DNA from: a virus
Lineage: Duplodnaviria > Caudoviricetes
Virus record (IMG/VR): IMGVR_UViG_3300044981_000214
Length of the DNA: 64,000 nucleotides
Direction: 5' to 3' (one strand)
In this document: positions 2,472-49,454 of the stretch, piece by piece
Position numbering within the stretch: position 1 is the stretch's first letter
Layout of the letters: every line of letters begins with the position of its first letter
Notes under the pieces: model-generated
Databases searched by the model: none
Seen by the model: the letters and a program-made list of their open reading frames with translations, nothing else
Told to the model about the DNA's origin: nothing
Made by a program: the position numbers and the translations under genes

Positions 2472-2618
2472 CTACTTGCGAAGCTGTTTGCGCATGCAGG
2501 TAATATATTTGCCGCTTCTTCGGTGCTTGCAAATTTTAGCTGCAGCCTTGAACCGTGCCCTAGCACGTTTCTGAGCTGGACTTGCAGCACGACGGGACTT
2601 ACGACGACGTTTGGCCAT
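2472..2618 (-). CDS. small basic protamine-like protein
   Basis: ATG at 2618 with AGGAG RBS; MAKRRRKSRRAASPAQKRARARFKAAAKICKHRRSGKYITCMRKQLRK. Confidence 0.7.
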   Translation of the reverse strand: MAKRRRKSRRAASPAQKRARARFKAAAKICKHRRSGKYITCMRKQLRK

Positions 2619-2653
2619 TTTGGCTTTGCTCCTGATTTTGAAGGTTGAGAAAA

Positions 2654-2797
2654 TTAACGCCGACGACGCGAACGCCCACCAAGCGCAGCACTCATGCACG
2701 AAGCACGAGCCCGCTTACTGCGACCCTTACACATTTTGGCCGCGCGGCCGAATTTGGTCTGCCACGCGCGTTGAGCTGCACTACGATGCTTTACCAT
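2654..2797 (-). CDS. small basic protein, paralog of 2472-2618 (absent from ORF track)
   Basis: translated by hand: MVKHRSAAQRAWQTKFGRAAKMCKGRSKRARASCMSAALGGRSRRRR (47 aa); AAGGGA RBS; shares SxAQ..F..AAKxCK..CM..L with its neighbour. Confidence 0.75.
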   Translation of the reverse strand: MVKHRSAAQRAWQTKFGRAAKMCKGRSKRARASCMSAALGGRSRRRR

Positions 2798-2941
2798 TTG
2801 ATTTTCCCTTCGTTATTTCTTGACTGCTGAACCGGATGGACGTTGAACTGGACGTGGCTGAGGCTGAGATGGCCTCCGCACACAGCAATTTTTGTTAAAT
2901 GCAGGCGTTGTCATAGCAAATATGATAACACGGATAGCAAG

Positions 2942-2957
2942 GATCGCTACAGCGATC
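2942..2957. promoter_or_regulatory. palindromic motif GATCGC-N4-GCGATC, copy 1
   Basis: GATCGCTACAGCGATC, intergenic, upstream of TATGCT (2969-2974) and ORF 3019. Confidence 0.7.
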
Positions 2958-3018
2958 ACAAGGTTAAGTATGCTATTCTAGATACGCCTCCTTCCCCTAT
3001 CCCGAGGTCTCAACCCCG

Positions 3019-4008
3019 ATGGCTAATATCAATCCCCTCACACTTACTAGTGCCGTCCAGGTTGGTGCAGGCATATATGAATTGATTCTGACCAATTGGG
3101 GTAATCTTGGTACTGCTGCTGAGCCAAACAATGGGTCGATTATTTACCCCTCATTACCGGGCAACCAGGTAACTCTAGCTATTACTCAAAACCTGAGTGC
3201 GTACAGTTTCCCGCCCCCTCAAGGCATGTATGCATTAGCTATCGCTCCACGATCCGATATAGATCGTTGCATAATCAACTACATTAGCCAACCCCAAGCA
3301 GCACCGAGTTTAACTGTCCCGCCACCATTACCCGGTAGTACATTTGCCACGGGTTTTGTTCAGAATGGCGGCATCCTAGAAACGGAACAGGTGTTAAGTA
3401 TCAATAGTCCTCTAATTGGACAGCAAGTAGGCCCATTAGTGATTCGGGCACATCCGTCGACCTTTTTCGGTGATACGTATGTTCAGACAACTACTGGTTC
3501 GTCATTAGCATTCGGAACTAATTCTGGCGTGTTCCTAGGCGGTTTTCCATTTCCGCCTGCAGCCAAGAACATATTTCAGATACCGCAGTTACGATTGCTA
3601 ATGTATACAAGTAGCAAGGCGCCCCTACCACCAACTATTCGTGCCCCTGCAATTTGGGGCTTCTCTGAAGACGTTTCTGGTAATACGACTGAGAAACTGA
3701 TCCGTATTCTGCCTATAAGCGGTAGGACGCAAATTGTGGTTAGTGTTCAGAGCGTCAGTGGTACGTCATTCACGGTAAGACTGACAGGCATGGTCTATCT
3801 TGGAAATAATCCTGCTGCAGGGAACATAGAAATCCCTCTCTTCCCGACTACGACAATAGCTGGATCTGCATCACAGAACATGACTATTTGTTCAAGCGAT
3901 ATCCCTAGTGGCATAACATTCTTATTGATATACATGGAACCTGCACCAGCTGGCGGTGGAGGTAGCGGTATTGGCAATTTCATAATCTCCGCCCAAGATA
4001 TTGGCTAA
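3019..4008 (+). CDS. beta-rich putative structural protein
   Basis: 329 aa, low charge, beta-strand pattern, heads the spike gene cluster. Confidence 0.55.
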   Translation: MANINPLTLTSAVQVGAGIYELILTNWGNLGTAAEPNNGSIIYPSLPGNQVTLAITQNLSAYSFPPPQGMYALAIAPRSDIDRCIINYISQPQAAPSLTVPPPLPGSTFATGFVQNGGILETEQVLSINSPLIGQQVGPLVIRAHPSTFFGDTYVQTTTGSSLAFGTNSGVFLGGFPFPPAAKNIFQIPQLRLLMYTSSKAPLPPTIRAPAIWGFSEDVSGNTTEKLIRILPISGRTQIVVSVQSVSGTSFTVRLTGMVYLGNNPAAGNIEIPLFPTTTIAGSASQNMTICSSDIPSGITFLLIYMEPAPAGGGGSGIGNFIISAQDIG

Positions 4009-4020
4009 AGGTGTAATCCA

Positions 4021-5451
4021 ATGGCACTACCACCTAGCTGTAATCCTGCGATTCTGTCGATCTCGGCAGGGACAACTAATGCTACAGGGCCGCAAGTTGT
4101 TTTTAGTAACTCCAATGGTGTAAGTTTTGGCGTCAGCGGTAATACGGTCACTGCTAGCGTTATTGGAGGCGGAGGTGATACTGACTTAGCTGTTAGTGCT
4201 AACGGTAACAGCGTATCAGCCGGTACACTGGTATTTTCCAATAGCAACAACGTATCGTTCGGAATGGCAGGCAGTACGATCACTGCCTCAGCAACCGCTT
4301 CACAATCGACTGCGCCGAGCGCTCTTGCAGCAGGGACGCAGACAGCTACAAGCGGGACTGTGGTATTTGCAAATTCCAACGGGCTTACGTTTGGAATGAG
4401 CGGAAGCACCCAAATCACTGGGAGCTATTCTCAATCTACCTCTCCTGGTGGGTTAGCGGCGGGCACACAAACGGCGACGTCCGGGACAGTCGTATTTAGC
4501 AATTCCAACAATATCTCATTTGGCATGAGCAACAGCAGTGTTATTACTGCGAGCTTCTCCCAGACGGTTCAACCAGGCGTTACAGCGATCGGCGTCAGCA
4601 ACATAGGCAATACGGCAGGTAATACCGGCACGACACAAGGAACTTACGTATTTGCAGGTGCAGGTGGAGTAACGCTCAGCCAAAGTACAGCAGCCGGATC
4701 ACTAGCAACCTTATCAATCAGTATGGTAGGTCCTGCCGCTATCAGTGCGGCCGGCGCCTCTGCTTCAAGCGGTACAGTTGTATTCAGCAACAGCAACAAC
4801 ATTTCGTTCGGCATGAATGGCAACACTGTTACAGCAAGTGCGAGCGATTTCACGCACTCGTTCCTCTATCCAGCAGGTCAATGGCCCCTGCAACTTACAA
4901 CACAAAACGGCCAGAATTCATTGGTACTGCACGCTATAACTGCGGAACCAGTAGCATTTTCATTGTTCGCACAACGTGTGCTCTGGTCTGGTACATCTAA
5001 CTCAACAGCTACGATTAGCTATACTTTCCAAGTAGGCGTGTATACCAAGAGCATCTCATCAATGTCACTAGTAATGTCGACATCATTTAACGGGTCAATC
5101 AATCACTCGGGCAATATTAACAACAGTTTGTACGCCAGTGAACGTGTTGTGACTGTGGCATGGACAAGTACACTTAACCGCGGCGATTACTATATTGGGC
5201 TACTGTCCAGTACAACATTTTCGAGTCAGAACGTTAACGCGCTAGAAAATATTCTAGGCAGCCAGCCGTCTACTAACTTTGTAGGCGTGCTGGGCAACGT
5301 AACTTCGGCAAGTGTTCAGGAAGTATTGGGCCTAGGCCACTATAGCTTAACGACCGGCGCAATGCCTTCTTCTATAGCCTTTTCCGATATTATCGGCACA
5401 GGTGCTAATGATAGGCGTGCGCCGATATATTACTTTGGCCAGACAGTCTAA
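4021..5451 (+). CDS. spike/fibre protein (stalk repeats plus C-terminal head)
   Basis: 5 copies of AGTQTATSGTVVFSNSNxxxFGM..TAS plus one B-type repeat; ~200-aa head with NRGDYYIG. Confidence 0.75.
   Translation: MALPPSCNPAILSISAGTTNATGPQVVFSNSNGVSFGVSGNTVTASVIGGGGDTDLAVSANGNSVSAGTLVFSNSNNVSFGMAGSTITASATASQSTAPSALAAGTQTATSGTVVFANSNGLTFGMSGSTQITGSYSQSTSPGGLAAGTQTATSGTVVFSNSNNISFGMSNSSVITASFSQTVQPGVTAIGVSNIGNTAGNTGTTQGTYVFAGAGGVTLSQSTAAGSLATLSISMVGPAAISAAGASASSGTVVFSNSNNISFGMNGNTVTASASDFTHSFLYPAGQWPLQLTTQNGQNSLVLHAITAEPVAFSLFAQRVLWSGTSNSTATISYTFQVGVYTKSISSMSLVMSTSFNGSINHSGNINNSLYASERVVTVAWTSTLNRGDYYIGLLSSTTFSSQNVNALENILGSQPSTNFVGVLGNVTSASVQEVLGLGHYSLTTGAMPSSIAFSDIIGTGANDRRAPIYYFGQTV
4521..4725 (+). 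repeat. 205-bp segment shared with 16021-16225
   Basis: collinear at offset 11500; 41-nt perfect stretch (4654-4694 = 16154-16194); differences mostly at third codon positions. Confidence 0.85.
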
Positions 5452-5454
5452 GAT

Positions 5455-8394: not shown

Positions 8395-8409
8395 AATCAA
8401 TATCCTATC

Positions 8410-9561: not shown

Positions 9562-9607
9562 CGGGGGTTATCTAACTCCCTTTGCCACCTCGTAAGTTTA
9601 ACATACA

Positions 9608-9641
9608 ATCCACTAGGATCGCTGTAGCGATCCTAATGGAT
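9608..9641. promoter_or_regulatory. palindromic motif copy 2 (extended inverted repeat)
   Basis: core GATCGCTGTAGCGATC at 9617-9632, arms extend to about 15 bp with one mismatch; upstream of TGtTAAACT on the minus strand. Confidence 0.7.
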
Positions 9642-9660
9642 GTTCCTAGTTCCAGACTAG

Positions 9661-10026
9661 TTACAACGGCTGCGGGAATTCCGCTAGAATCCACCAGTTT
9701 GATACACCGTCACAAACTACCAACATGGAGTTGTATTGGTGAGGCAGTGACTTTGATGCCGAACCATCAATTGTATCTGCTCCGGTTGCAGCAACCGTAA
9801 CGCCGCCCGCAAAGACGTTCTTGATGAAATACGCTCTACCAAGCGACTTAGACGCTTGTGGCAAGGTTACCGTGATCGCTGCAGTTGCCACAATGACTGC
9901 CTGAGGGCCTGTCACGCCTGCACTCCACGCAGTACCTGTTGATACGATTCCCCAATGCTGCCACATCTGGTTAAGCAGTGCGAATCGGCCGAATAACCCC
10001 ATGAAGTCTATTGGATTGCTATTCAT
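9661..10026 (-). CDS. small spike/fibre-module protein
   Basis: ITVTLP..GRAYFIKN..TIDG..YNS..DGVSNWWI pattern typical of phage fibre modules. Confidence 0.6.
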   Translation of the reverse strand: MNSNPIDFMGLFGRFALLNQMWQHWGIVSTGTAWSAGVTGPQAVIVATAAITVTLPQASKSLGRAYFIKNVFAGGVTVAATGADTIDGSASKSLPHQYNSMLVVCDGVSNWWILAEFPQPL

Positions 10027-10054
10027 ATAGATTCTCTTTTCGTTTAAAGGGTTA

Positions 10055-10357: not shown

Positions 10358-10363
10358 TTTATA

Positions 10364-10900: not shown

Positions 10901-11003
10901 GTTTATTGTCTCCGATAAAAGGATCAGTTACAGGTTCCGTTACACTATCTTATACTTAGATAGATACTTCAATCATCAACTGCACTCTGTTCTATTAAAA
11001 AAA

Positions 11004-11032
11004 TTGACCGGGTTACGGAATTGTACTAAGCT
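11004..11032 (+). promoter_or_regulatory. sigma70-like promoter
   Basis: TTGACC-N17-TAAGCT upstream of 11045. Confidence 0.5.
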
Positions 11033-11044
11033 GTTGAACTTCGA

Positions 11045-12565: not shown

Positions 12566-12610
12566 CTCGCATCAATAGCTAACAAGTGATACACTAAGGT
12601 AACGTAGCCC

Positions 12611-13697: not shown

Positions 13698-13701
13698 TTA
13701 A

Positions 13702-21105: not shown

Positions 21106-22962
21106 ATGTTCTTCGGGACTAACCCTTCACCTGACCAAGTCGAAGCCCTCGTTCTACGTACATACGATGACGTTGTAACAGCTCCTCCGGGCATCTACAT
21201 AGTCGTATCCGGTAGCGCCGCTTTCTTCCCTGCTATCGCTCTAGCGACTGCCAACGACGCGCGTATAGTCGGTGAGTCCTACGATGACGAGGGCAATAAA
21301 GTCGTCACCCTGCACGTCGTAACAGCACCTAGCAAGCGTGCCATGGACAACTTCGGTGCAGCTGACGACCAACGGCGAACGATCACCATCGGACGTGAAT
21401 TTTTCTTAACGGCTCTCAAGGACTACCACGACTGGCCTATCAAGTGGTGGCGTGAGGCTATTCAAAATAGCGTAGACGCTGGTGCTAGGCACATCATTAT
21501 CGAGGAGCGAGAAAACGAGGATTCAACGCATACCGTAGTCGTGGATGACGATGGTGGCGGTATGACCGAAGATGTTTTGATTAACAAGTTTCTCGTTCTT
21601 GGCGCAACTACGAAAGTAGCTGAATCGGGGGCTGCTGGCGGGTTTGGTAAGGCTAAAGAACTACTACTTCTCCCGTGGATCTCATGGCGAGTGCATACGC
21701 GCGATACAGTAGTTGACGGGGCTGGTATCGACTATACGGTCTCAAAGGCTGAATACAAGCCTGGCACACGGCTGGAAGTCATCATGCCCGCTGACAAGTA
21801 TACCAAAGCTTATCAGGCAATCGCTTTCATCGAGAAATGTGATCTTCCTGACGTCCATTTTCTTGTCAACGGCAACCGTCAGAAGGCTAATCTAAGAGGC
21901 AAAGATATAGTCGATTCTGTGACCGGTAAGATCGACGTGTACTTCACTCCTGGTAAGGGCAAACAGCCGTATCTGTTTGTCCGAACCAAGGGCCTATTCA
22001 TGTTCGAGCAATACGTCGGTGAGATACCTGGATATATCGTCGCTGAACTCACTGCGCCATCTATAGACATACTCACAGCCAATAGAGACGGCTTTCGAGA
22101 CTATTCTGTCAAGAATGCTCTTGACCGCTTAGGTATGCGCATTGCCAAAGACAACATGAGCGCTCTGCGGTCTAAGGCCGGCTTAATTAGGCAAAAGTTC
22201 GAGGGCTCAGGCAAGTTCCGGGCAAAGAAACTTGCAGCTGGCTTGCTAGAGCAAATCGGTCCCACACAGGATTTCAAGAAATTATCTGAGGCAGATAGCC
22301 AACAACTGGTAGAAGTCATTGACGGCTACCGCGAACGCGATACTGAGGCCGGACGCGCTACACAGCTACCATCGTCGGTAACTACCGAAGTTCTACTCGA
22401 CCAGAAATTTACAGGCCCAAGCCACATTGAAGCAGCGCTAAAGCAGCTTGTATGGGAGCCTGATTTCTTTATCATCAATGAAATCGAAGGTTTTCGAGTG
22501 CCCAAGAAATTCTTTCCTGCCACGATGACACCGCGTGTCCTGAAGCTAGCCAAGACGTGGGTTGAGCTTGTGCGTTACGTATTTATGCAATTGGGCTCCG
22601 AACAGCATTTTGGTGTAGGCTGGATATTCAGCGAGACTACTGCCGCAGCCTGTGTGACTGAAGCTAATAGCAACGGTGACACAGAGCACTGGATAATGCT
22701 TAACCCGTTTACAAACATGCGAGACGGGGGCATCTGGCACCCGACTACGGACGCTGATCTAAAGTGGCTCTACGCAGCGGCTGTACACGAGTCAACGCAT
22801 GCTGTAGACGGATTGTCGTACCACGATGAAAGCTTCGCTGCAGCACTAACTATGAATATAGCCAGAACTGCTGACGGTTATCGAAAGATTCGCGCAATCG
22901 TTGGCGGCATCAAGATGCGAGGGAGTGCTGAAGCGGACGTTGATGATAACGACGAAGATTAG
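21106..22962 (+). CDS. GHKL (Hsp90/MORC-like) ATPase fused to HExxH metallopeptidase-like domain
   Basis: REAIQNSVDA, DDDGGGM, GGFGKAK, GTRLEV; C-terminal VHESTH..YHDESF. Confidence 0.8.
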   Translation: MFFGTNPSPDQVEALVLRTYDDVVTAPPGIYIVVSGSAAFFPAIALATANDARIVGESYDDEGNKVVTLHVVTAPSKRAMDNFGAADDQRRTITIGREFFLTALKDYHDWPIKWWREAIQNSVDAGARHIIIEERENEDSTHTVVVDDDGGGMTEDVLINKFLVLGATTKVAESGAAGGFGKAKELLLLPWISWRVHTRDTVVDGAGIDYTVSKAEYKPGTRLEVIMPADKYTKAYQAIAFIEKCDLPDVHFLVNGNRQKANLRGKDIVDSVTGKIDVYFTPGKGKQPYLFVRTKGLFMFEQYVGEIPGYIVAELTAPSIDILTANRDGFRDYSVKNALDRLGMRIAKDNMSALRSKAGLIRQKFEGSGKFRAKKLAAGLLEQIGPTQDFKKLSEADSQQLVEVIDGYRERDTEAGRATQLPSSVTTEVLLDQKFTGPSHIEAALKQLVWEPDFFIINEIEGFRVPKKFFPATMTPRVLKLAKTWVELVRYVFMQLGSEQHFGVGWIFSETTAAACVTEANSNGDTEHWIMLNPFTNMRDGGIWHPTTDADLKWLYAAAVHESTHAVDGLSYHDESFAAALTMNIARTADGYRKIRAIVGGIKMRGSAEADVDDNDED

Positions 22963-23231
22963 ATTTCAAGTACTTCCAGGGCGCATTCACGAATCGTTAT
23001 CGATACGTCTGTGGTAGCTAATAGCTGAAGCGTATTTCGTGCAGATTCTCGCTTCAAATGTCGCGACAGCCCGTAAATCGCGCCCTCACGAACTATTGAA
23101 CTAGTGTGAGATGCAAGACTAACTAATAATTCACATGCTTCGTCGGTGTCTGTATAACCTAGACCTTCTGCTCCAAATGTCAGGTCACAAGGTTCTGTCA
23201 TTTGACGGACCTCGACGACCGTTTTCCTCAT
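22959..23231 (-). CDS. HEAT-repeat-like small protein
   Basis: SSIVREGAIYGL..DVSITIRECALEVL. Confidence 0.6.
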   Translation of the reverse strand: MRKTVVEVRQMTEPCDLTFGAEGLGYTDTDEACELLVSLASHTSSIVREGAIYGLSRHLKRESARNTLQLLATTDVSITIRECALEVLEI

Positions 23232-28628: not shown

Positions 28629-28877
28629 ATGGCTAGGGATCACATTCTCCACACTTGGTTTACCTGCCCTTGCTGTGGTGAGGAGCCAACAGAAATTCAA
28701 GAGGCATGCGCTCGTGCAGGCTGTCAGGCGTGTACGGAGTGGCTGACCCGATTAACTGGAGCAATACAGGAGGCTATAAAACAAGGCGAGTCGCGAACAC
28801 TACTTCTTAACCGTAAGGATGTTGCAGAATGGTTTGATAGCCTTCCACAATCATCAGAACTAGAACCAAAAAATTAA
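28629..28877 (+). CDS. small Cys-rich (zinc-binding) protein
   Basis: CPCC..C..CQAC. Confidence 0.5.
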   Translation: MARDHILHTWFTCPCCGEEPTEIQEACARAGCQACTEWLTRLTGAIQEAIKQGESRTLLLNRKDVAEWFDSLPQSSELEPKN

Positions 28878-29116
28878 CGTCGACGTCTACGCTTGCTACG
28901 TCCACGGCTACCCATCCCACCCTCAACCGTGTAGCACTCGGACCTGGTACATTCCATAACCGGACGTTGTAGCCCTGGTAAGCCGCGACTAATCGTACAG
29001 ACAGCATTTGGATGCTTAGCGGAACATTTCTGAACCGACTTTAACGCATCTGGAAATTTAGTATGGTAGGCCCGAGGAAACCCTGCAGGGCCGGTTACTA
29101 CAAATCGATCAGCCAT
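28874..29116 (-). CDS. small basic protein with GMG-poly-Arg tail
   Basis: ends EGGMGSRGRSKRRRRR; leaderless TGtTAAAAT-N6-ATG. Confidence 0.65.
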   Translation of the reverse strand: MADRFVVTGPAGFPRAYHTKFPDALKSVQKCSAKHPNAVCTISRGLPGLQRPVMECTRSECYTVEGGMGSRGRSKRRRRR

Positions 29117-29150
29117 CCGTTAATTTTAACATAGATCGCTACACAGATCG

Positions 29151-29528
29151 CTACCGACCTGCGCCGCATATACAGCCGGTACCTGGAGTACTATTACATT
29201 TTGCAGTATGTAATGGGCGGCTAGCCCACTCGGCCTCAAATTCTGCTCTTTCTTTGGCCTGTTGTGCTTGCCGTTCACGGCCAGCAACGACCTCAGCCTT
29301 CAGGCTAGCTATACGTGATCTATGTTTGTTGGCTATGGTCGTAGCGGCTTTGGCTATAGCATCTGAAAGAGTAACTACACAACTCTCACAGGTTTCACGG
29401 ATTACAGGTTTACCTGTTTTCTCGTCGGTCAACCAACCGTTACTAAATTTGCTGGACACCTTGAAGGATCCGCCATTCTCCCACGCGCCTTCTAGGCGTT
29501 CACCGCATACCCCGCAATATACCGCCAT
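29151..29528 (-). CDS. zinc-finger/coiled-coil hypothetical protein
   Basis: CxxC..CxxC plus coiled coil. Confidence 0.5.
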   Translation of the reverse strand: MAVYCGVCGERLEGAWENGGSFKVSSKFSNGWLTDEKTGKPVIRETCESCVVTLSDAIAKAATTIANKHRSRIASLKAEVVAGRERQAQQAKERAEFEAEWASRPLHTAKCNSTPGTGCICGAGR

Positions 29529-29533
29529 TCGTG

Positions 29534-29827
29534 CTATACCTTAGCCGAAGGGTTGATAACCGCACCCATACCAACCAGAACTTCGTAGGTCTTACGATAG
29601 GCATCAAAGGCGTCAGCTAGCGCAGTAGCGAGATCCTCGGCCTCTGCTGAGGCAGATGCTAGGCCAACAATTCGACACGTGACGTTGTTCGCACCCATGA
29701 TTACTAGAATGGTCGGATTGCCCAGTAGAGCCTTCACTCCGACAATTTCGTTGAGGGTAGAATTTTTTGTGATCGGCATGACGTAAAAGCTATTTGGGCA
29801 TAGCCTGCCATACTTGTCAAGAGTCAA
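29534..29827 (-). CDS. hypothetical protein
   Basis: fills the gap between same-strand genes; start uncertain. Confidence 0.35.
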   Translation of the reverse strand: MTLDKYGRLCPNSFYVMPITKNSTLNEIVGVKALLGNPTILVIMGANNVTCRIVGLASASAEAEDLATALADAFDAYRKTYEVLVGMGAVINPSAKV

Positions 29828-29833
29828 TTAGAA

Positions 29834-30985
29834 TCAGATCGTACTGTACAGGTACCACCCCGGCATCAACGACCCGCCACCTGGCCGAACATAGTTCGCG
29901 TCTGAAGCTGCAATCGATGCAGGCATAGCTGTAGAGAAGGTTGCATTCAAGATGCCATCTTGCCATTGGCTAGTAAATCCATCGGCATTAGCAGCGGGCG
30001 CAACTAGCCAAGGTTGGCCGATCGCTACGAAAGTCCCACTGTTGTTAGAATTTTGTGTCCTCATGTGAAAGCCAAACAGGTAGTCGCCGGGTGTCAGATT
30101 TGCGGTTATCGGCATTGTGCGCAACTGCGCACCGCTAAGCGAACTGAATACTGTTCCAGTATTCCATGTGAACAACCGCGAACCCGAACTAGCAAGACTG
30201 GCCGTAGAGGCATTGAACGTATAAATGCCCATGCTCAAGGTCAAGGCATTCGACGATATACTGGTATTATCAGTCATCGAGATATAGAACACAGCCTGTG
30301 ACGCCGAAATTGAAATGGGCACAGACATTTTCTGTACCGTCAATGCAGCGTTGCTCATTGACCATGAACCACGAAAGTTCACACCTTCACTCAGGACGGC
30401 TATTTGTACCGGAGCCACAGCAGCTACTGATGCAGTAACTACACTGGAGTTACTCATTCCGAATGTGACACCATTAGAATTGCTAAATACAATTGTACCT
30501 GTAGTCCCTGTCTGAGTTCCTGCAGCAATTCCACTGGGTGACGTTGACTGCGAATAACTTGCAGTCACAACGCTATTATTCGACATCCCGAACGTAAGGC
30601 CATTAGAGTTACTGAATACAACTGTGCCACTCGTGGCTGTTTGAGTGCCTGCAGCAACCCCTCCTAACGCATTAGTCAGATCGCTTGCGCCTCCCTGGAG
30701 AAGAAACTGTGTAAATCCCGTAGCGTTATGATTGAACGGGGGAGGTAATGCAGCCTCGATCGTATGCCAGAACTCTACGTAGACATTTACCGAACTAGCC
30801 CCCGTTGAATTCCTGGTTACAGTGACAAAATTAACATCTGCCGTAATTGTAAATCCGCCTGTATCAGCCAATACGATCTTGGGTTGAGTAGGCTTTCCAT
30901 TTACGTTGATAAGATGAGGTAATGATTGGGGAAATCCGATCAACAGTCCAGTGAAAGCAAGCGTATTCTTTAGGATAGTCCCCAT
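29834..30985 (-). CDS. spike/fibre protein (LKN adaptor, 2 stalk repeats, head)
   Basis: true start ATG 30985 (MGTILKN); LTPGDYLFGF head paralogous to 15032. Confidence 0.75.
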   Translation of the reverse strand: MGTILKNTLAFTGLLIGFPQSLPHLINVNGKPTQPKIVLADTGGFTITADVNFVTVTRNSTGASSVNVYVEFWHTIEAALPPPFNHNATGFTQFLLQGGASDLTNALGGVAAGTQTATSGTVVFSNSNGLTFGMSNNSVVTASYSQSTSPSGIAAGTQTGTTGTIVFSNSNGVTFGMSNSSVVTASVAAVAPVQIAVLSEGVNFRGSWSMSNAALTVQKMSVPISISASQAVFYISMTDNTSISSNALTLSMGIYTFNASTASLASSGSRLFTWNTGTVFSSLSGAQLRTMPITANLTPGDYLFGFHMRTQNSNNSGTFVAIGQPWLVAPAANADGFTSQWQDGILNATFSTAMPASIAASDANYVRPGGGSLMPGWYLYSTI

Positions 30986-31006
30986 AACTATCTCATAGAG
31001 TACCAC

Positions 31007-31028
31007 GTTGATCGCTACAGCGATCAAC
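31007..31028. promoter_or_regulatory. palindromic motif copy 4
   Basis: GTTGATCGCTACAGCGATCAAC directly upstream of TGgTACTCT on the minus strand. Confidence 0.7.
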
Positions 31029-31074
31029 CGATCGACCGATCGTCTACCTAAACTTAGTGACCGTGCCTATCCGG

Positions 31075-31473
31075 TTAACGCCCAAGGGAGTTAACACAGC
31101 TTTCCTCACCAGGAGGCTGATGACGGATCTTAGCTAGATCTACCAGCTGTCTTTTCGACAACGCACTCAGCCCGAGATTAAGTATGTTCTGAGCCGAGTT
31201 CACGTCTCGGTCGTGGTTTGCACCACATTCAGAACATACCCATTCCCTTATTCCAAGACCTGCGATACCTTTCGGACTCGAAGGTGATTTAGCACCACAC
31301 TCCGAACAGGTTTGGGTCGTGAAACGTTCATCCACTTCTTTACAGATCCCACCGTGCCTGCTGGCTTTGATTTCGAACTTAGCGAGGTACCCCCACGCTT
31401 GAACAAGCTGTTTAAAGGCTTTGTGACGCGGTTCACTATCATCCAGAAATAGGATAATCGGCAGCATTTCCAC
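31075..31473 (-). mobile_element. tnpB: truncated IS200/IS605-family TnpB (C-terminal Zn ribbon and RuvC-III) fused to a receiver-like N-terminus
   Basis: EVDERFTTQTCSECG..REWVCSECGANHDRDVNSAQNIL; RuvC-I/II missing; N-terminal ILFLDD is not TnpB-like. Confidence 0.75.
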
Positions 31474-31503
31474 TTGCTACTTTAGACGCGTCTTACGTCT
31501 TGT

Positions 31504-31683
31504 TTATTTCCGTTTTTTACGCCGTCTACGTGCTTGTAGCGGCACACCTGGTGGTGGAACCACAACAGGAACCCAGCCAGCACTAGCTGCGCGTTCCGCT
31601 TCAGCACGGGTCGAGAAACAACCGTCGAACTTACGTTTGCCAACCTGACCTTTGGCTAAGGTCCATATGCATCGCTTGATCAT
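31504..31683 (-). CDS. small basic protein with poly-Arg/Lys tail
   Basis: TGcTATAAT upstream of ATG 31683; ends PLQARRRRKKRK. Confidence 0.6.
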   Translation of the reverse strand: MIKRCIWTLAKGQVGKRKFDGCFSTRAEAERAASAGWVPVVVPPPGVPLQARRRRKKRK

Positions 31684-31702
31684 AATCAAGGTATTATAGC
31701 AC

Positions 31703-32905
31703 TTACACGGGTGACAGAAATACGTTTGCGTCCCCAATAGCCCCAGGCGATCCTGCAGCACCTGCGCCTATACCTGCACCACCTGAACCCCCAGTTACGA
31801 GAAACAGTCCGCTACCGCTACGCACAGATGCGAGGCTGAGGATAGTACCTCCTCCTCCGCCACCGCCGCCACCACCATCTCCACCAGTACCCGATGCTGC
31901 AGCGCCATTACCGCCTAGTGCCTCTACTGTGCCATTGTTAATAAATATGGCAGCGTGCCAGATAAGGACACCGCCTCCGCTACCTCCACCTCCACCATTT
32001 ACCCCTGCATTGTTAGACCCCCCACCACCGCCTCCTGCACCGCCGCCAATCGTAAATACTTGAGGCTGTCCACTAGGAATCTGCAGACCGAATAAGAAGC
32101 CCGTTAAGATTGGAATTAGATAACTAGCACCACCGTTATTCACAGTCGTAGGGTATGTGCCGCCATTACCTCCCAAATGCGATCCGTCAGCTTGCCCTCC
32201 TGCACCACCTGTTGCCGAGGCATCTTGAAGCGTTGCTGATGAAGAAACATTGGTTCCATTCGCCCCTGCCCCCACACCAGTATGTCCATTACCGCCAGCA
32301 ACACCGAAGCCATAAGTACCTGTTGCCGTTGCTAGCCCTCCGGTCGCACCGATAGCATTGTTACTGCTGCATAATAACAAGCCATTGTTGGTAAAAAGGC
32401 CATTGACGAAACCTCTAAACCCTGCAGCATTGACAGTTATCCCGCCCGATATAGAACTACCCCCAGCAAGAAAAATGTCTTTATTCAGGGTATATGTACT
32501 CCCTAATAAAGTAGCAAATGGAAAGGTGTTAACACCATTGAACACAGCAACACCATTATGTCCATCACCGTATGCAATCGATGAGACTACGCCTGATAAA
32601 GGGAAACTTTGCGCCCCAACAAAAGGCTGCGTAGCCAACTTCTTATTCTGTACGCCCCCGAATGCGCGTTCGAAAGAGTGCCAACTCTCGCATAGTACAG
32701 CTACAGTGAGCGAGGTACTGGTGGTGTTTGTAGCGGTTACGTTAAATGCGTCAGCCGACAATGTGGCCGAATTACCAATACTAGTAATCAACGAATCCGG
32801 CACCAATGGCCGCCCAAACTGATCCTGAAGCCCGTGTGGGAGTGATGCAGTACTACCAGTTGCGATACCTACGAAGTTAACAATGTTCTTTAGCTGCGCA
32901 GGCAT
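31703..32905 (-). CDS. glycine-rich spike/fibre protein with LKN adaptor
   Basis: QLKNIVNF..LPHGL..CESWHSFE adaptor; GGGGGG-rich C-terminal half. Confidence 0.7.
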   Translation of the reverse strand: MPAQLKNIVNFVGIATGSTASLPHGLQDQFGRPLVPDSLITSIGNSATLSADAFNVTATNTTSTSLTVAVLCESWHSFERAFGGVQNKKLATQPFVGAQSFPLSGVVSSIAYGDGHNGVAVFNGVNTFPFATLLGSTYTLNKDIFLAGGSSISGGITVNAAGFRGFVNGLFTNNGLLLCSSNNAIGATGGLATATGTYGFGVAGGNGHTGVGAGANGTNVSSSATLQDASATGGAGGQADGSHLGGNGGTYPTTVNNGGASYLIPILTGFLFGLQIPSGQPQVFTIGGGAGGGGGGSNNAGVNGGGGGSGGGVLIWHAAIFINNGTVEALGGNGAAASGTGGDGGGGGGGGGGTILSLASVRSGSGLFLVTGGSGGAGIGAGAAGSPGAIGDANVFLSPV

Positions 32906-32954
32906 AGCTAAAGAGTACCATAGGTATCACCTTATACGTGGTAAACTGTCTAAT

Positions 32955-33185
32955 ATGCTTGCTATAACGATGCTCAGCGGTAGTTTTGGCCACGGTGGAG
33001 GACACGGCGGTGGCGGTCATCATGGTGGTGGCGGGCACGGTCACGGCTATTATCCTGGATGGATCGATGAAGGTCCAGAAATATTAGTCGTTCCTGGCGG
33101 ATCTCAATTGTGTCAATACGTAGTGACACTACCAAACGGGCAACAGCAGATAGTTAGCCGACCGTGTCCTCCTGATGTATACTAA
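32955..33185 (+). CDS. small Gly/His-rich protein
   Basis: TGgTAAACT-N7-ATG; MLAITMLSGSFG-HGGGH. Confidence 0.55.
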   Translation: MLAITMLSGSFGHGGGHGGGGHHGGGGHGHGYYPGWIDEGPEILVVPGGSQLCQYVVTLPNGQQQIVSRPCPPDVY

Positions 33186-33345
33186 ACTGCAAAGGGACAT
33201 ATGATTAACTTTCAAACCACAGAAACCTTCATGATCACAGGCAACGTATTCATTGGAAATAGTAGCTCACACGAGGGACCTTGGTATAGTAGCGCATGGC
33301 ACCGATTCTGGCACGATGTAGCTCGATTCGCGCTACGCCAGATAG

Positions 33346-33927
33346 CTAATCGCCGAAATTGAGCACGTAATTAGTTTCGTCATACAGTCCGACGTTCACG
33401 AAATCAAAACCGTATAGCTCGCAGACTTTCTGCTCGCCGAACTGATTGTCGAGATACAAGAAAGTACATGTCTGAGCGACTATCTCAACGAACAAAGCTA
33501 ATCGCGCCACTGGTGGTGCAAGCTTGACGTGTCGATTGTAGGCGCCCATTTCACCGCGTAGGGTAAACTGATGCCCGCCGGCCAAGTGAATCATGTAATC
33601 GTGTACAGCACGAAATCGGTGATTCTCTTTGGGCGTCCAGACCTGGTGATCGCTGGCACCTGTCCAGACTAGCATTTTGTGGTTCGTCTCGATGTCATGC
33701 TTCATCGTCTCAAAATCTGGGTATGGATCTTTAGACGTAAATATAACATTGACCTTACGCGACATCTGACGAAATAGCCGGTCGGTGCTGGCTTGAAGCG
33801 CCAACCAAGACGGTGTCGCGTCTTCCTCAAACAGCGGCCGGGCCAAATAAGCTTGGGCGACTACAGGAACAAATTTCTTGTAGTCAGTTAGAGCAAGGCG
33901 GCCGAAGGCATCATCAGAAAAGGCCAT
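33346..33927 (-). CDS. conserved phage protein (FRAVHD motif)
   Basis: NHRFRAVHDYMIH..F..RGE..AY..H motif seen in phage proteins; flanked by DAFG and NFGD. Confidence 0.6.
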   Translation of the reverse strand: MAFSDDAFGRLALTDYKKFVPVVAQAYLARPLFEEDATPSWLALQASTDRLFRQMSRKVNVIFTSKDPYPDFETMKHDIETNHKMLVWTGASDHQVWTPKENHRFRAVHDYMIHLAGGHQFTLRGEMGAYNRHVKLAPPVARLALFVEIVAQTCTFLYLDNQFGEQKVCELYGFDFVNVGLYDETNYVLNFGD

Positions 33928-33933
33928 ACACGT

Positions 33934-34776
33934 TTAGTGTACAACAACTGTAGCTATAAGGATATTGTCGGGACGATTGTTGTCGTCAAAAGCATCGTAA
34001 ACCATATACGTTCTATTAAGTCTGACACGCTGAATTGCAGCAAGATCCGCGTTCATGAGCGTCGCAATATCTTCTGGTGAAACACCTCGTCCGTTCAATT
34101 GTCGTATCAACCGCGCCTGTTCATTTGTAAATTGACTGCAAGCAATACGCTCAGCCCTAGCGTATCTAGCACGCCCACGTTCCTGCATCTCCAGAATATT
34201 TTGTTGCTGCGTTCCTAGATGTAAATGATTTGCAGGATCTTCAGTGTTGACGCACAAGCGATTATCACAACCGTGAAGCACCTGCATACCTTCAGGGATT
34301 GGTCCTACAAATAGGCGATACGCCCAACGGTGAGCTGCATCACTGGCTATCCCCCACGGATTTTCGAATCGCGTCGGAAACCACCAGCTACCATAGCCGG
34401 TTGAACTGGTCCCGGCAGTCCAATTGAAACACCCTTTCGGCCATGGATTACAGTCTGGCGCTAATTTGGTTACGTGCCATAGGAAGAAATCCTGCGGTGT
34501 CTCTGGCGCGAATAAATGTGAAGGCTTAACACACAGACTATTATTGCATGTATGCCAAAGTGTCTTAACCCTATGGCCAGTCTTCAAGTACCAAGCGAAC
34601 AAAGGCGCGTTTACACCCTTATTCCCAAATACAAGTAGCTCTGGATCATCGACACGTAGGTTGAAGCGTCCTATGCCTTTATAGACGCTCCACGGAAATA
34701 TTTCACAACCCTTGTCGATTACGATCTTGCTAAAAAACCGTTCTGCCGCTGTTAGGCCATCCGTTGCTCTTGCCAT
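33934..34776 (-). CDS. HNH endonuclease (two HNH-like repeats)
   Basis: HTCNNSLCVKPSHL and AHRWAY..VLHGCDNRLCVN..HL.LGT..N. Confidence 0.85.
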   Translation of the reverse strand: MARATDGLTAAERFFSKIVIDKGCEIFPWSVYKGIGRFNLRVDDPELLVFGNKGVNAPLFAWYLKTGHRVKTLWHTCNNSLCVKPSHLFAPETPQDFFLWHVTKLAPDCNPWPKGCFNWTAGTSSTGYGSWWFPTRFENPWGIASDAAHRWAYRLFVGPIPEGMQVLHGCDNRLCVNTEDPANHLHLGTQQQNILEMQERGRARYARAERIACSQFTNEQARLIRQLNGRGVSPEDIATLMNADLAAIQRVRLNRTYMVYDAFDDNNRPDNILIATVVVH

Positions 34777-34785
34777 TAGAGAAGG

Positions 34786-35409
34786 TCAATCTTCCGGTTC
34801 CCACGCTTTGGAAAATTCGTGGTCCTTGAACATTTCAGCGAGTCCGGTGACCTGTTTGAGCCGCAGCACCTCGTCTGGCTCCATACCCAACTCTTTACCG
34901 ATTCTTTCATTGCTCCAGTTGGACCGCGTTAGTTCTTGGACTATATCGCTCATCGCTTCAACGTGATGTTTCCCTCGTGCCCGATTATGCCGTACGGTTG
35001 CAGCCATACGGTCCGTTCGCTTGTCACGATTTTGATTGATCACTACAACAGGCAGATAACCGTGGACGCGATCTGATATGTCCGTTACCTCTCGTCCTAC
35101 ACGGTTTCTGTGGAATCCATCCACAACTTCGAATTCATCTTCATGCTCCCAAGCCACAATCGGCTGTGTGTAACCGTCTTCACGAATGGAGTGCTCCAAG
35201 AGCGTCATTTCGGGCGGTGCTACAGCGTTTGGATTGTAGTCATTAGCTACTACTGTATCCTGTTTCATCCACAGAACGCAATCCACAGGCTCATTCCTAA
35301 ATGGGCTTATTCCATGGACAGCTATCCGAATTTGGTTTATCGCTTCAATACGTTCTTCTAGTGACAGCGTCTCTAGCTTTGCTAACATAGCTTTAATCAA
35401 TTCGTCCAT
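34786..35409 (-). CDS. ibrB: IbrB/YbdM-like ParB-domain protein
   Basis: ANDYNPNAVAPPEM, DGYTQPIV, VVDGFHR, ATVRHNRARGKH, ELGMEPDEVLRLKQ. Confidence 0.9.
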   Translation of the reverse strand: MDELIKAMLAKLETLSLEERIEAINQIRIAVHGISPFRNEPVDCVLWMKQDTVVANDYNPNAVAPPEMTLLEHSIREDGYTQPIVAWEHEDEFEVVDGFHRNRVGREVTDISDRVHGYLPVVVINQNRDKRTDRMAATVRHNRARGKHHVEAMSDIVQELTRSNWSNERIGKELGMEPDEVLRLKQVTGLAEMFKDHEFSKAWEPED

Positions 35410-35410
35410 A

Positions 35411-36601
35411 TCACCACTCCATCTTCCAAGCCGCTCGACGCTTAGCCATAAGCTGCTTGTATCTTTCGTATGCGCTTGTCTTCATAGGAGCAAACGATAG
35501 AGATCGACACCAGTAGTCGTTCTTCAACAGCACACGGCACAGTCTGCGCCAAGACGGCATATCAGTAGATCCAGTATCTCCTGGCAGTTCGTCCGCGATT
35601 ACTTGCCCATGATTCTCATACCATTTTCTCCATACGCTAAACTTGTTCCTATAGTGTTCAGCTGTAGTACGTGGAATAGTACTCAACAGGAACTTGGTAA
35701 AGGACTCCCACGTGTGTCCTGGAGGTTTAGTAATTGCCCGGTTACCTAGAATGTTCCCCTTCTCTTTACAGTACAAAGAGGCGCTATTAGCGCCTGCTAC
35801 ACGGGCTGCTACAGCACCCCAAGTGGCAGGCTCAAGGATCTGATAGAGCCAGAGTCCGCGCCGTTGTTCGTCTCCGTACGGCTCGCAAACACGCATTTGT
35901 GAGACCTTTAGCCCTGCCTTGAACATCAAGTCGTATATCGTGTTATAGGGCTTTCCTTTGGCAAGGTACCCCCAAATATCATTTACTTGCCAGTCGTATA
36001 TTGGATACGCAGCGTAGCTACCTTTTCCATAATACGTTGTCCATCGCAAGTCATCTAGCATTGCTTTTTCTTGGGTTATCGCACGCCAACGGTTAAGGCT
36101 CTCTGACGTACGTAATCCGAGCAGTCCTATTGCAGGCGTATCTCTCGCGTACCAATTACCAAATTCGACTACAAACTCTTCGAATGTCATGTTGTGGTGG
36201 TAGAACGGGAGCTTTTCTTTATTTGCCTGTTCTGGTAGAGATCTGACCCAAGCAAGCTGCTTATCAGGATCCCAACAGGTCCATTCGGGCGCAATCATGC
36301 TACACGCATTAGTAGTACGCAGTGGTAACGCTACCCAATACGGGATTATATTTTCAGCGTACCGTTTAAACATGTCGGATACGAACGTTATTGTTCTGTT
36401 GAATTGCGCTTCCCAGTCAATAAACAACACCCCAAATTTACGTTGTCGTAGTTTAGCTTCTTCTGCTACTAGATGAAGAAGTACGGCGCTGTCCTTGCCT
36501 CCACTGAATCCAACATAGATAGCCTCAAATCTATCAAAAATAAGACTGATCCGCTCCTTAGCTGCTTCATAAACGTTGTGACTTAGATATCTACGATTCA
36601 T
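35411..36601 (-). CDS. ibrA: IbrA/YbdN-like PAPS-reductase family protein (DUF3440)
   Basis: FSGGKDS, FIDWEAQ, GLRTSESLNRW, YPIYDW, MRVCEPYGDEQR, SWRRLC..LKNDYWC. Confidence 0.9.
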   Translation of the reverse strand: MNRRYLSHNVYEAAKERISLIFDRFEAIYVGFSGGKDSAVLLHLVAEEAKLRQRKFGVLFIDWEAQFNRTITFVSDMFKRYAENIIPYWVALPLRTTNACSMIAPEWTCWDPDKQLAWVRSLPEQANKEKLPFYHHNMTFEEFVVEFGNWYARDTPAIGLLGLRTSESLNRWRAITQEKAMLDDLRWTTYYGKGSYAAYPIYDWQVNDIWGYLAKGKPYNTIYDLMFKAGLKVSQMRVCEPYGDEQRRGLWLYQILEPATWGAVAARVAGANSASLYCKEKGNILGNRAITKPPGHTWESFTKFLLSTIPRTTAEHYRNKFSVWRKWYENHGQVIADELPGDTGSTDMPSWRRLCRVLLKNDYWCRSLSFAPMKTSAYERYKQLMAKRRAAWKMEW

Positions 36602-37761
36602 TTATGCTCTGTCCACTTCCGACGTGTATCCTTAGGTGCACGGCCCATGTTCCCGATTGGAGTTCCGAGAGCTTCATCTAATGACCATCCGTTATGCATT
36701 CGACTCTTCACACGACTGTAGTCAATTCCAGCAAGTTCAGCCCATTCATTTAGGGTCTTTGTCTCCCCTTCTAACGTGAAAAATTTAGTATTTCGCCGAT
36801 TCGTATTCTGCTCCTGATAGGTAGCCCACCTAAAATTGCCCGGTTCATAGTGCCCATCATTGTTAGGGAATCGATCGAAAGTCAGATCGCGGGATGCTGG
36901 CATTCCAACATCAGCGATAAAACGATCGAAATCCATCCAGGCTGTGTGCACCTTGATGCCTCTACCACCATAATCAGCATAGCGGTCATGGCTAGGATCA
37001 GTGCAACGGCTGACCATTTGATACCACCGTTTATAGACTAGCTCACGGGTAACAGGTGCCGAACTGCGAGGCAAAACAGCTTGTTCGGCCGTCCAATTAT
37101 ACTTGGTTATTCGTTGGTAGATTCGCTGTTGAGGCACCCCAGTCCGTTCGGATATCTCACCTATGGTTAGATTTTCGTCGTGAAAAGCATATCTGACCGT
37201 ATCACGAAGATTTCTACCTTGTTCCTTTGAAGTCGCCCAACGAACATTTCCAGGTTCGTAATTTCCTGCAGGATTAGGGAATCGATCTAAAGAGTGCAAC
37301 TTAGACGGTCTAAGTCCTATATCCTCGATAAAAGCCTCAAAGCTATTTCGCCAACGATCACATACTATGACGCCCTTAGCGCCATACCATTTGTAGCGTG
37401 CATCTTTGACCCTATAGCAACGATTCAGCATAGCCTGCCAGGCTTTGTATTCTGGGGTAGTGGTACCGTTCTTTGCGTGACCGTGTTTAGCGTTTAATTC
37501 ATTCTTCGCACACACCATCTCGGAATGTATACAACCGCACGATGTGGTTGCACCACTGCGTAGGCTAGAAGGCATGACAAGGACATATCCTCCTTCTGGG
37601 CAACTACATTGGCAGACTAATTTAGCTTGACCGTATTCATTCCGGTTCAAAGCTACCCCCTTGACAGTAAGCCGAACGAATTCACAGCCAATTAGCTTTC
37701 GTAAACTCAGGCTGGGGTCAGGGTCCAAGTCAGGTTGTGATGAAAATTTGGTTGCGCGCAA
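36598..37761 (-). CDS. HNH-type homing endonuclease with duplicated domain
   Basis: two copies of W..M..RC..YG.RGI.V..W..F..D.G..DRFPN..GxYEPGNxRWAT. Confidence 0.8.
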   Translation of the reverse strand: MRATKFSSQPDLDPDPSLSLRKLIGCEFVRLTVKGVALNRNEYGQAKLVCQCSCPEGGYVLVMPSSLRSGATTSCGCIHSEMVCAKNELNAKHGHAKNGTTTPEYKAWQAMLNRCYRVKDARYKWYGAKGVIVCDRWRNSFEAFIEDIGLRPSKLHSLDRFPNPAGNYEPGNVRWATSKEQGRNLRDTVRYAFHDENLTIGEISERTGVPQQRIYQRITKYNWTAEQAVLPRSSAPVTRELVYKRWYQMVSRCTDPSHDRYADYGGRGIKVHTAWMDFDRFIADVGMPASRDLTFDRFPNNDGHYEPGNFRWATYQEQNTNRRNTKFFTLEGETKTLNEWAELAGIDYSRVKSRMHNGWSLDEALGTPIGNMGRAPKDTRRKWTEHK

Positions 37762-37833
37762 TACCCGTATTCATACTTGATAGCGTTCAGCAAAGCAAGT
37801 ATTAAAATCAGGTCGTATTTATGCAATCCAGGC

Positions 37834-48299: not shown

Positions 48300-48563
48300 A
48301 TGAAGCGTGCTGCAGGTCCCAGATTCATATGCTGGCGAGTAGACCTCGGTAGCCATCGTCCGGCATATGTTACGAGTGTAGCAGAAACCAAAGGACGGGC
48401 AGGGTGGCGCTACACAGCAAATAAGTCAGGGGCTCGTACGCTGTCACCTGAAATGGTCAAGGATTTCGAAGCAACGGTCAGTCGTGAACGTGGCATATCC
48501 TTTTGTCGCTCTGTTGATTCCGGGTTAGGGCATAAACGAACTAGATCGCGTACACGAAAGTGA
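48300..48563 (+). CDS. small basic protein with GLG-Arg tail
   Basis: ends DSGLGHKRTRSRTRK. Confidence 0.6.
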   Translation: MKRAAGPRFICWRVDLGSHRPAYVTSVAETKGRAGWRYTANKSGARTLSPEMVKDFEATVSRERGISFCRSVDSGLGHKRTRSRTRK

Positions 48564-48568
48564 CTAGT

Positions 48569-48584
48569 GATCGCCCTAGCGATC
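48569..48584. promoter_or_regulatory. palindromic motif copy 7
   Basis: GATCGCCCTAGCGATC, 3 nt before TGaTATGCT. Confidence 0.7.
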
Positions 48585-48603
48585 CTATGATATGCTAATA
48601 ACC

Positions 48604-48915
48604 ATGCGTAGACGCAGTCGATTAGGTAGCCCCGAGTACATACATACACTGCGGGCCAAGACTGCACAGCGATCGATGAAAGAGGGCCTGAGTCTAGCTG
48701 AAAAGAGACTTGCGGCCCGGCAATGCACAAGTGCCTATATGAATTTAGTGCAGGCGTGGCAGGGGTACGGCCAGGTAATGGCTGAAAACAAGGGCGGTGG
48801 TAGCGAATGGATTCCGCATTCGGATTTTATGGACACTAGCGGCAAGTTTGTTGATATGTGCATCAGGGACCTCGAACACGGACTAGGTAGGCGCACTAGA
48901 CGCAGTCGTCGGTGA
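48604..48915 (+). CDS. small basic protein with LG-Arg tags at both ends
   Basis: MRRRSRLG-SP ... EHGLG-RRTRRSRR; leaderless ATG 48604. Confidence 0.65.
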   Translation: MRRRSRLGSPEYIHTLRAKTAQRSMKEGLSLAEKRLAARQCTSAYMNLVQAWQGYGQVMAENKGGGSEWIPHSDFMDTSGKFVDMCIRDLEHGLGRRTRRSRR

Positions 48916-48940
48916 TAATTGAAAAAGGATCAAAGAGATC

Positions 48941-49207
48941 ATGGCCCAAAACAAGTTATTCTGCGCCCGTAGTATTCCAGGCGCCCCATTCGTTCGCACC
49001 TCGATCAAGCATAAAAAGCTATCAGAGTTCGAGCAGACTAAGGTCGGTAAGGTTATCTTGCTGGTTCATCAAGGTTATCCTCACATGATCTTGACTGCGC
49101 CTAAGCGCAAGGGTGAATTTGAAGCAAAGTGTCCATTCGGGACCAAAAAAATACATATCGACTCACCACATGAGTTGAGCGGACTTCGTCGGCGACACAG
49201 GCGGTAA
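48941..49207 (+). CDS. small basic protein with LSG-Arg tail
   Basis: ends HELSGLRRRHRR. Confidence 0.6.
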   Translation: MAQNKLFCARSIPGAPFVRTSIKHKKLSEFEQTKVGKVILLVHQGYPHMILTAPKRKGEFEAKCPFGTKKIHIDSPHELSGLRRRHRR

Positions 49208-49211
49208 GCAC

Positions 49212-49454
49212 GTGACGACCCGTAAGATTAATGGCCTTTTCTGCGAAAAGGCCCTAGCGTCCCAGCATATTTTCTCACCTGCTAGCTTTCGTTGGACGCG
49301 TTCAGGCAAAGCTTGGATCCTGCTTGGATGCCAACGCAACGCATACGATAGCCGCACTAGGCATTGCAAAGTAGGCCTCCGCGGCTTCAAGCTCCTAACA
49401 CCTGTTCACGGTAAGCGGTGTCCACCAGGTGCAAAGCGAATCGATAAACGCTAG
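49212..49454 (+). CDS. small basic Cys-rich protein
   Basis: LFC..F..SFR...GK..IL.GC pattern, distantly similar to 48941. Confidence 0.6.
   Translation: MTTRKINGLFCEKALASQHIFSPASFRWTRSGKAWILLGCQRNAYDSRTRHCKVGLRGFKLLTPVHGKRCPPGAKRIDKR

Follow-up and report, generated by a model that had tools for sequence, protein, structure and literature searches.

The 64,000-nucleotide stretch of viral DNA analysed here (IMG/VR record IMGVR_UViG_3300044981_000214; Duplodnaviria, Caudoviricetes), referred to as the window throughout, encodes a series of small proteins carrying short arginine-rich segments at one or both termini. Judged from sequence comparison, these termini are genuine and portable Arg-rich tags, which look like labels for DNA or membrane binding that are perhaps clipped off. 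The tag as a feature is conserved and statistically solid, whereas the mechanism is attractive but putative. The window has a GC content of 49% and belongs to a contig of approximately 229 kb from an uncultured bacterial virus from soil. A preliminary description, made from the letters of the window, had proposed a family of tiny basic proteins with a Gly-linked poly-Arg tract that recruits them to the genome or the nascent particle and is removed at the adjacent Gly motif. All eight C-terminal strings it had listed were read exactly and at their coordinates, and the same holds for its three N-terminal strings of the MRRKSLG, MRYRRSLG and MRRRSRLG types.

For comparison we used close strains (L003, L038/L039 and L040; 89-99% nucleotide identity), an intermediate relative represented by L020 and L037, two stretches of one 232-kb ENA contig (54% GC, 40-85% protein identity), the high-GC IMG/VR relatives G001 (196 kb) and G002 (95 kb), and further metagenome loci retrieved via the protease-like gene described below. 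A search of viral contigs using the VWA protein of the window found no relative. The tiny tagged proteins match no family in Pfam or PHROGs, and a search of the ESM Atlas returned no usable match. Codon-usage scores of the small open reading frames (ORFs) are near zero and uninformative, and conservation was used as gene support in their place.

Composition, junction and polarity of the tags

The tags are runs of 5-10 residues, mostly Arg with Ser or Thr between, and occur at either terminus, with a net charge of +3 to +8 over 5-11 terminal residues, forming Arg-dominated terminal runs outside the folded body as is characteristic of an arginine-rich terminal motif. Basic C-termini with at least five Lys or Arg among the last eight residues are found in 8 of the 103 window proteins, while shuffled sequences give 0.45 on average and 3 at most. 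The share of Arg among Arg plus Lys is 84% within the tags compared to 56% in the proteome (p = 5e-6).

A hydrophobic residue followed by glycine marks the junction between body and tag. Considering the window, L020 plus L037 and G001 together, [L/F/M/I/V]-Gly is placed zero to one residue before 13 of 36 basic tails lacking a transmembrane (TM) helix, against 4.5% under the null (p = 3e-9); by genome, this amounts to 4/8 in the window, 5/7 in L020 plus L037 and 4/21 in G001, the null being 4-5%. Of 132 internal basic runs, just 7 have the pair in front of them (Fisher p = 7e-6). As a consensus, the junction reads [G/A/S]-[L/F/M/V]-G and any residue can come next; Gly, Ala or Ser is usual ahead of the hydrophobic residue. 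Among 33 proteins that start with a basic run, 10 have the pair no more than five residues behind it (8.8% expected; p = 4e-4), and the reversed order, Gly then hydrophobic, occurs in a single one of these 33. This identical polarity at both termini, which is not predicted by a plain hinge, fits directional recognition, for example a protease site.

No TM helix precedes the tail in the tiny proteins, and the N-terminal tags show no twin-arginine or type IV prepilin signal, no hydrophobic stretch following them and the residues after the Gly being polar (e.g. SPEYIHTLRAK, AAMSKAKAEE).

Tagged genes and their conservation

The description of the tails as belonging to tiny proteins holds for most of the set: seven of the eight tails are encoded in genes backed by orthologs, by the codon-position pattern or by paralogy, the ORF 41179-41373 being unverified, and the tail ending at 47327 belongs to a protein of 293 residues. 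The description of the carriers as otherwise unrelated is borne out at the level of BLAST, as the tagged bodies, with net charges between -43 and +14, give no matches to each other except for the paralogs 2654-2797 and 2472-2618. Lack of conservation of the tails among related viruses had been named as an observation that would refute the idea; the tails are kept in L020/L037, L038, G001, G002, L011 and L013, with homologs at 37-70% identity retaining them.

On the plus strand, 48604-48915 encodes a neutral 103-residue protein tagged at both ends, starting MRRRSRLG-SPEY and ending HGLG-RRTRRSRR (here and below the last hyphen marks the boundary of the tag). Its L020 ortholog (P0002, 66% identity) ends HGLG-RRNRRR, and the N-terminal tag together with the following [L/F]G-S[P/T] is conserved in G001 and G002 at approximately 27% identity of the body, i.e. 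in four genomes in all. The 87-residue basic protein of 48300-48563 (+) ends SGLG-HKRTRSRTRK and its L020 ortholog (55%) PLLG-RKRIKSRKVRSL, with the LG being invariant, while the 88-residue basic protein of 48941-49207 (+) ends ELSG-LRRRHRR and its L020 ortholog (70%) LEGFG-RRRSRRR. The final gene of this cluster, 49212-49454 (+), encodes an 80-residue basic protein with orthologs in G002 (47%) and L015 (42%); its end is weakly basic (KRIDKR) and has no hydrophobic-Gly tag. Directly after the tagged cluster, 49467-49892 encodes a dual-specificity phosphatase (DSPc), which is found there in L020, L001 and L002 as well; since the tags have interspersed Ser and Thr residues and the DSPc gene adjoins, phospho-regulation of the tags is conceivable.

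The 80-residue four-Cys protein of 28874-29116 (-) ends GGMG-SRGRSKRRRRR and has six remote homologs and an ortholog in G002. Its body is 95% identical in L038, and 24 of approximately 30 substitutions fall on codon position 3. The tail is rewritten in L038 to GGMG-RRRKRSRKRR by in-frame indels, leaving GGMG unchanged and the segment basic throughout. Homologs within this family have additional KRRRKKSSFG-type tags at the N-terminus, and the remote homolog P0003 fuses a module like that of G001 23353-23595 to the four-Cys module, which shows domain shuffling among tagged miniproteins; G001 has four tagged miniproteins in a row at 22853-23901. For the 59-residue basic protein of 31504-31683 (-; start ATG at 31683), which ends PLQA-RRRRKKRK with a junction without Gly, 13 of 16 substitutions relative to L038 are at codon position 3, some of them inside the tail, and homologs in L011 and L013 end TVAG-RRRKRRSR and TVAG-RRRR.

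A tag that changes ends is seen in two minus-strand paralogs. The ATG-started ORF 2654-2797 encodes a 47-residue basic two-Cys miniprotein ending AALG-GRSRRRR, supported by paralogy, being 41-43% identical to 2472-2618 and to the ortholog of the latter in L037 (9678-9824); it shows zero substitutions relative to L040, hence allowing no codon-position comparison there. The 48-residue paralog 2472-2618 carries its tag at the N-terminus (MAKRRRKSRR), and its L037 ortholog (63%) starts MAKRRRSRRGLG-ASPAQ. The tag has thus moved between paralogs, the N-terminal MAKRRRSRRGLG in one copy corresponding to the C-terminal GGRSRRRR in the other.

Tags are also found on larger proteins. The 110-residue glycine-zipper membrane protein of 41956-42288 (-; Pfam Gly-zipper matches) starts MRYRRSLGRFSDAG-D and keeps its tag in the 43% identical L020 ortholog, which starts MRNHWSRRRRSSLG-D. 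The very acidic 264-residue protein of 582-1376 (-; net charge -43) starts MMRRKSLG. The 293-residue Ser/Thr/Pro-rich protein of 46446-47327 (+) has a C-terminal TM helix followed by MRKKPTAAFG-RRRSY; its L020 ortholog stops at the TM helix plus SRRKKAGR, without the FG-RRRSY extension. Further tails in L037 are SFG-GRRRRR, MFG-SRRRARRRRR, ALG-RRRRRYPRFY, HLG-RSTTRKF and AFG-RRFGRRFRRR.

The unverified ORF 41179-41373 (+) ends VSG-RRRRRR and would, if real, likely start at ATG 41215. L003 has one A fewer here (A4, compared to the A5 run 41248-41252 of the window), which swaps the N-terminal frame; the two versions have ATG starts 4 nt apart, are approximately 50 residues each and are alike in their last 39 residues. 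No ortholog was found in L020, G001 or G002. The surrounding 661-bp segment 41004-41664, which holds an HTH_17 excisionase-like gene (41374-41646), is inverted relative to the close strains L003 and L038, and compared to L020, L001 and L002 the gene is likewise oriented the other way round. Its flanks have no long inverted repeats, just an internal 11-nt palindrome pair being present, and the segment reflects a true inversion or else a misassembly.

As the bodies are unmatched and vary in net charge, as the tag swaps ends in paralogs and as the homologs of 28874-29116 gain N-terminal tags, the data imply the tag to be a module that is no part of any single fold. Selection acts on tail composition and junction rather than on the exact sequence, because the tail of 28874-29116 is rewritten yet basic and because third-position substitutions run through the tail of 31504-31683. 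The view of the Arg tracts as a shared module on otherwise unrelated small proteins is thereby upheld: they are portable, maintained by selection and bounded by a Gly motif of the same polarity at both ends.

Candidate processing enzyme, shared palindrome and a putative mechanism

The minus-strand gene 43071-43886 encodes a TM-anchored Cys-His-Asp enzyme, which is our candidate for a tag-processing protease (Pfam Transglut_core, E = 6e-7, 30.1 bits at a cutoff of 23). All of 14 homologs share its residues C197, H230 and D249, and the gene is syntenic in every relative fetched, with a tagged miniprotein encoded directly after it in L011 and L013. The linker past its TM helix itself holds a hydrophobic-Gly pair. 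Comparing its profile with PDB sequences turned up no meaningful match, and co-folding of the catalytic part with the 80-residue tagged protein yielded a median score of 0.00, carrying no weight either way. Domain scans, which covered part of the genome, assigned no protease family to the other large window proteins.

The perfect palindrome GATCGC-N4-GCGATC occurs in nine copies in the window compared to 0.16 expected (2942, 9617, 13702, 31010, 40871, 43925, 48569, 54137 and 63168), all in promoter-like gaps. Copies head both tagged operons, the one at 2942-2957 being placed at the head of the minus-strand operon beginning with 2654-2797 and the one at 48569-48584 lying 20 nt upstream of the start of 48604-48915; another is located between the protease and the tail-anchor operons, and the remaining copies precede further large genes that are conserved but of unknown function. 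Such a distribution suggests a single regulon, with the palindrome as its candidate operator. TATGAT-like -10 elements are found approximately 12 nt before the ATG of the genes starting at 48604 and 47369 and are not accompanied by a Shine-Dalgarno sequence (48581-48606 and 47340-47371), which suggests the respective mRNAs to be leaderless or near-leaderless.

In the model that we consider the most likely, the tag would tether small proteins to a polyanion, with viral DNA being the first choice and the acidic face of a viral membrane the second. As the tagged proteins share the operator with the anchored-protein and candidate-protease operons, tethering might take place during particle assembly, if the operator marks an assembly-stage regulon. 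The hydrophobic-Gly junction would then be a processing site read by the membrane-anchored Cys-His-Asp enzyme, and the cut would separate the body from the tag. We infer the binding target, the timing, the location in the virion and the cleavage itself from sequence. For the whole model, i.e. tethering followed by a cut at the junction, we see a chance slightly short of even, and cleavage taken on its own we would put at about one in three. A bolder version would posit a lineage of bacterial viruses of approximately 200 kb in which dozens of unrelated small proteins carry clip-off Arg tags, are loaded onto the genome or an inner membrane and are released by a membrane-anchored papain-like enzyme cutting after [small]-[L/F/M/V]-Gly, as an independently arisen counterpart of adenovirus core maturation; this we regard as speculative and unlikely. 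In the literature we found no description of poly-Arg tags or of such a protease for bacterial viruses.

Comparison with known systems

Adenovirus maturation may serve as the nearest working analogy. In adenovirus the C-terminal 11-mer of pVI, pVIc (GVQSLKRRRCF), is released by adenain at IVGL↓G and slides on DNA carrying the protease (PMC4246237, PMC4740752). As in pVII, pX/mu and pVI, the window combines a short basic terminal peptide attached via a Gly-containing site, a viral candidate cysteine protease and basic proteins that are candidate DNA associates, and its G-[L/F/M]-G junctions resemble the adenovirus IVG-L-G site. In contrast to adenovirus, the virus infects a bacterium, its enzyme is a TM-anchored transglutaminase-core protein instead of a clan CE adenain, and cleavage as well as its dependence on DNA are putative here. 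The protein of 43071-43886 has no Pfam match to Peptidase C5 (adenain) in the scans of part of the genome. The junctions do not fit the adenain sites (M/I/L)-x-G-G↓x or (M/I/L)-x-G-x↓G either, the hydrophobic P4 residue not being conserved. The analogy to adenovirus pVII/mu drawn in the preliminary description therefore holds functionally at most, as the sole candidate enzyme is a Transglut_core protein instead of adenain and the [small]-[L/F/M/V]-G junction differs from the adenain consensus.

The double-glycine leaders of C39 peptidases (PCAT/AMS transporters) share with the tags an end marked by Gly and a papain-like Cys-His-Asp peptidase at the membrane, which is only a candidate here. C39 leaders comprise 15-30 residues, are exclusively N-terminal, not polybasic and end in GG, GA or GS. 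Unlike these, the tags comprise 6-12 residues, are Arg-rich, occur at either end and have a hydrophobic residue before the Gly, which sets them apart from C39 leaders. For the enzyme, Pfam gives Transglut_core only and no Peptidase_C39, and its structure model, with a predicted local distance difference test (pLDDT) score of 40.6, is too poor for a fold comparison.

The capsid-targeting sequences of phage T4 are N-terminal and not polybasic, and the prohead protease gp21, a herpesvirus-type serine protease, cuts after Leu/Ile-x-Glu. The tags resemble them in being short, portable terminal peptides on unrelated small proteins; removal after delivery is a feature of T4 that is proposed here. Neither a T4-type prohead protease nor the Leu/Ile-x-Glu motif was seen in our data. 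The C-terminal domain of the hepatitis B core protein and the coat proteins of many small ssRNA and ssDNA viruses possess disordered, Arg-rich arms with interspersed Ser neutralising the packaged nucleic acid. The tags likewise are terminal Arg-rich segments with Ser between. However, such arms are part of a capsid protein and have no conserved hydrophobic-Gly pair, whereas the tag is found on many miniproteins that are unrelated to each other.

Alternative explanations

The main rival to tethering followed by cleavage is a permanent nucleic-acid-binding tail, according to which the proteins bind DNA in the manner of histones or protamines, or regulate by binding RNA. The Arg run would then stay in place for good, much like the Arg-rich motifs of capsid proteins and the C-terminal domain of the hepatitis B core, and the Gly pair would act just as a flexible hinge or helix cap. 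Several observations that weigh against our model agree with this explanation. Six of nine tagged bodies are strongly basic themselves (pI 9-12) and therefore could bind a polyanion without the tag, so that the tail may do no more than enlarge a surface for nucleic-acid binding. Nor is the junction universal, as it reads LQA in 31504-31683 and LSA in P0005; the window copy of 2472-2618 lacks the GLG seen in its L037 ortholog, and the L037 ortholog of 582-1376 (43%) starts MARKKTTKTDR, which is basic and without SLG. The preference for Arg over Lys would also be expected for nucleic-acid binding, and Ser/Thr within the runs together with the nearby conserved phosphatase recall phospho-regulated basic tails. 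The case for the enzyme is affected as well, since its family match goes no further than the transglutaminase-core superfamily, a broad group that also contains non-proteases, and the low pLDDT of its model, built from the 14-sequence alignment, prevents a fold search. A hinge, however, predicts neither the identical hydrophobic-then-Gly order at both termini nor the preference for Leu, Phe, Met or Val before the Gly nor the rarity of the pair before internal basic runs, and neutral as well as very acidic bodies are tagged too. Considering both sides, we judge the permanent tail to be rather unlikely.

The polybasic run together with the nearby hydrophobic residue might instead keep soluble proteins attached to the acidic side of a membrane, be it that of the host or of the virus, beside the tail-anchored proteins and the anchored enzyme. 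The window indeed encodes proteins ending in a TM helix plus Lys/Arg (43980-47863), glycine-zipper proteins and the TM-anchored enzyme, and the tail of 46446-47327 directly extends a TM anchor. Lipid binding does not need the strong bias for Arg over Lys, though, the tags show none of the aromatic or acyl features that polybasic anchors usually have, and an internal viral membrane is only hypothetical, making this explanation improbable. We give hardly any credence to the tails being an artefact, i.e. spurious ORFs, CGN-rich DNA or terminator hairpins translating as Arg. The near-zero codon-usage scores and the unverified ORF 41179-41373 would agree with it, and the genes in the high-GC relatives were called by ourselves and may include spurious Arg-rich ORFs, a point that also weighs against our model. 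Conservation data largely refute this explanation, with orthologs at 27-70% identity, substitutions biased to the third codon position and the rewritten but basic tail of 28874-29116. An origin from terminator hairpins was rejected, four of six tail-coding RNAs folding no better than shuffled sequences.

If the tags indeed are address labels clipped after delivery, they would provide a sequence-readable rule for the proteins loaded with the genome in large soil viruses and represent a maturation chemistry new for bacterial viruses, with tag plus junction forming a ready-made cargo-loading module. Even if never cut, an Arg tag common to many miniproteins that are otherwise unrelated points to proteins assisting in neutralising the charge of a 200-kb genome, a need not known for tailed phages.

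Neighbouring genes and genome context

The genes at 43980-47863 encode a run of five proteins starting with ML(Q/I/M) and ending in a TM helix plus Lys/Arg, which are paralogs of 46446-47327. Basic flanks immediately behind a C-terminal TM helix, as in tail anchors, are confined to 46446-47327 and these neighbours. Members of this family in the high-GC relatives have a W-x-F-W motif ahead of the TM helix and end RRKR-x-A. Two Ser/Thr/Pro/Ala-rich proteins (38751-39701 and 39932-40888), present in every relative, are dense in FG/LG pairs (QFG, FFG, EFG, GGFG, PGFG, SGFG), and their composition recalls FG-repeat proteins; 38751-39701 also bears glycine-zipper segments. Next to the four-Cys gene, 215 bp (28654-28868) are missing from the close strain L038. 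As these hold most of the Cys-rich ORF 28629-28877 (+), this ORF is strain-specific or no gene.

The conserved 329-residue protein of 3019-4008 has 47 homologs on large contigs and is predicted to fold into beta-sandwich domains (pLDDT 81). A fold search gave matches for the C-terminal domain alone, to beta-sandwiches of a generic kind, namely GOLD, Ena, CBM and certain capsid jelly rolls, at Z 9-11 with no clear leader. Models of Terminase_6N and Phage_capsid (HK97), both hallmarks of tailed phages, and of FtsK_SpoIIIE gave no match in G001 or G002. The window further encodes HNH and LAGLIDADG endonucleases, a PAPS-reductase/DUF3440 plus ParB-like pair, a VWA protein common with ViI-like phages, a pectate-lyase-fold spike and a GH25 lysozyme with a peptidoglycan-binding domain. 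The block 29000-37800, containing HNH endonucleases and the PAPS-reductase/DUF3440 plus ParB-like genes (an IbrA/IbrB-like pair), is absent at the syntenic position in G001 (L002) and looks like an inserted mobile cassette.

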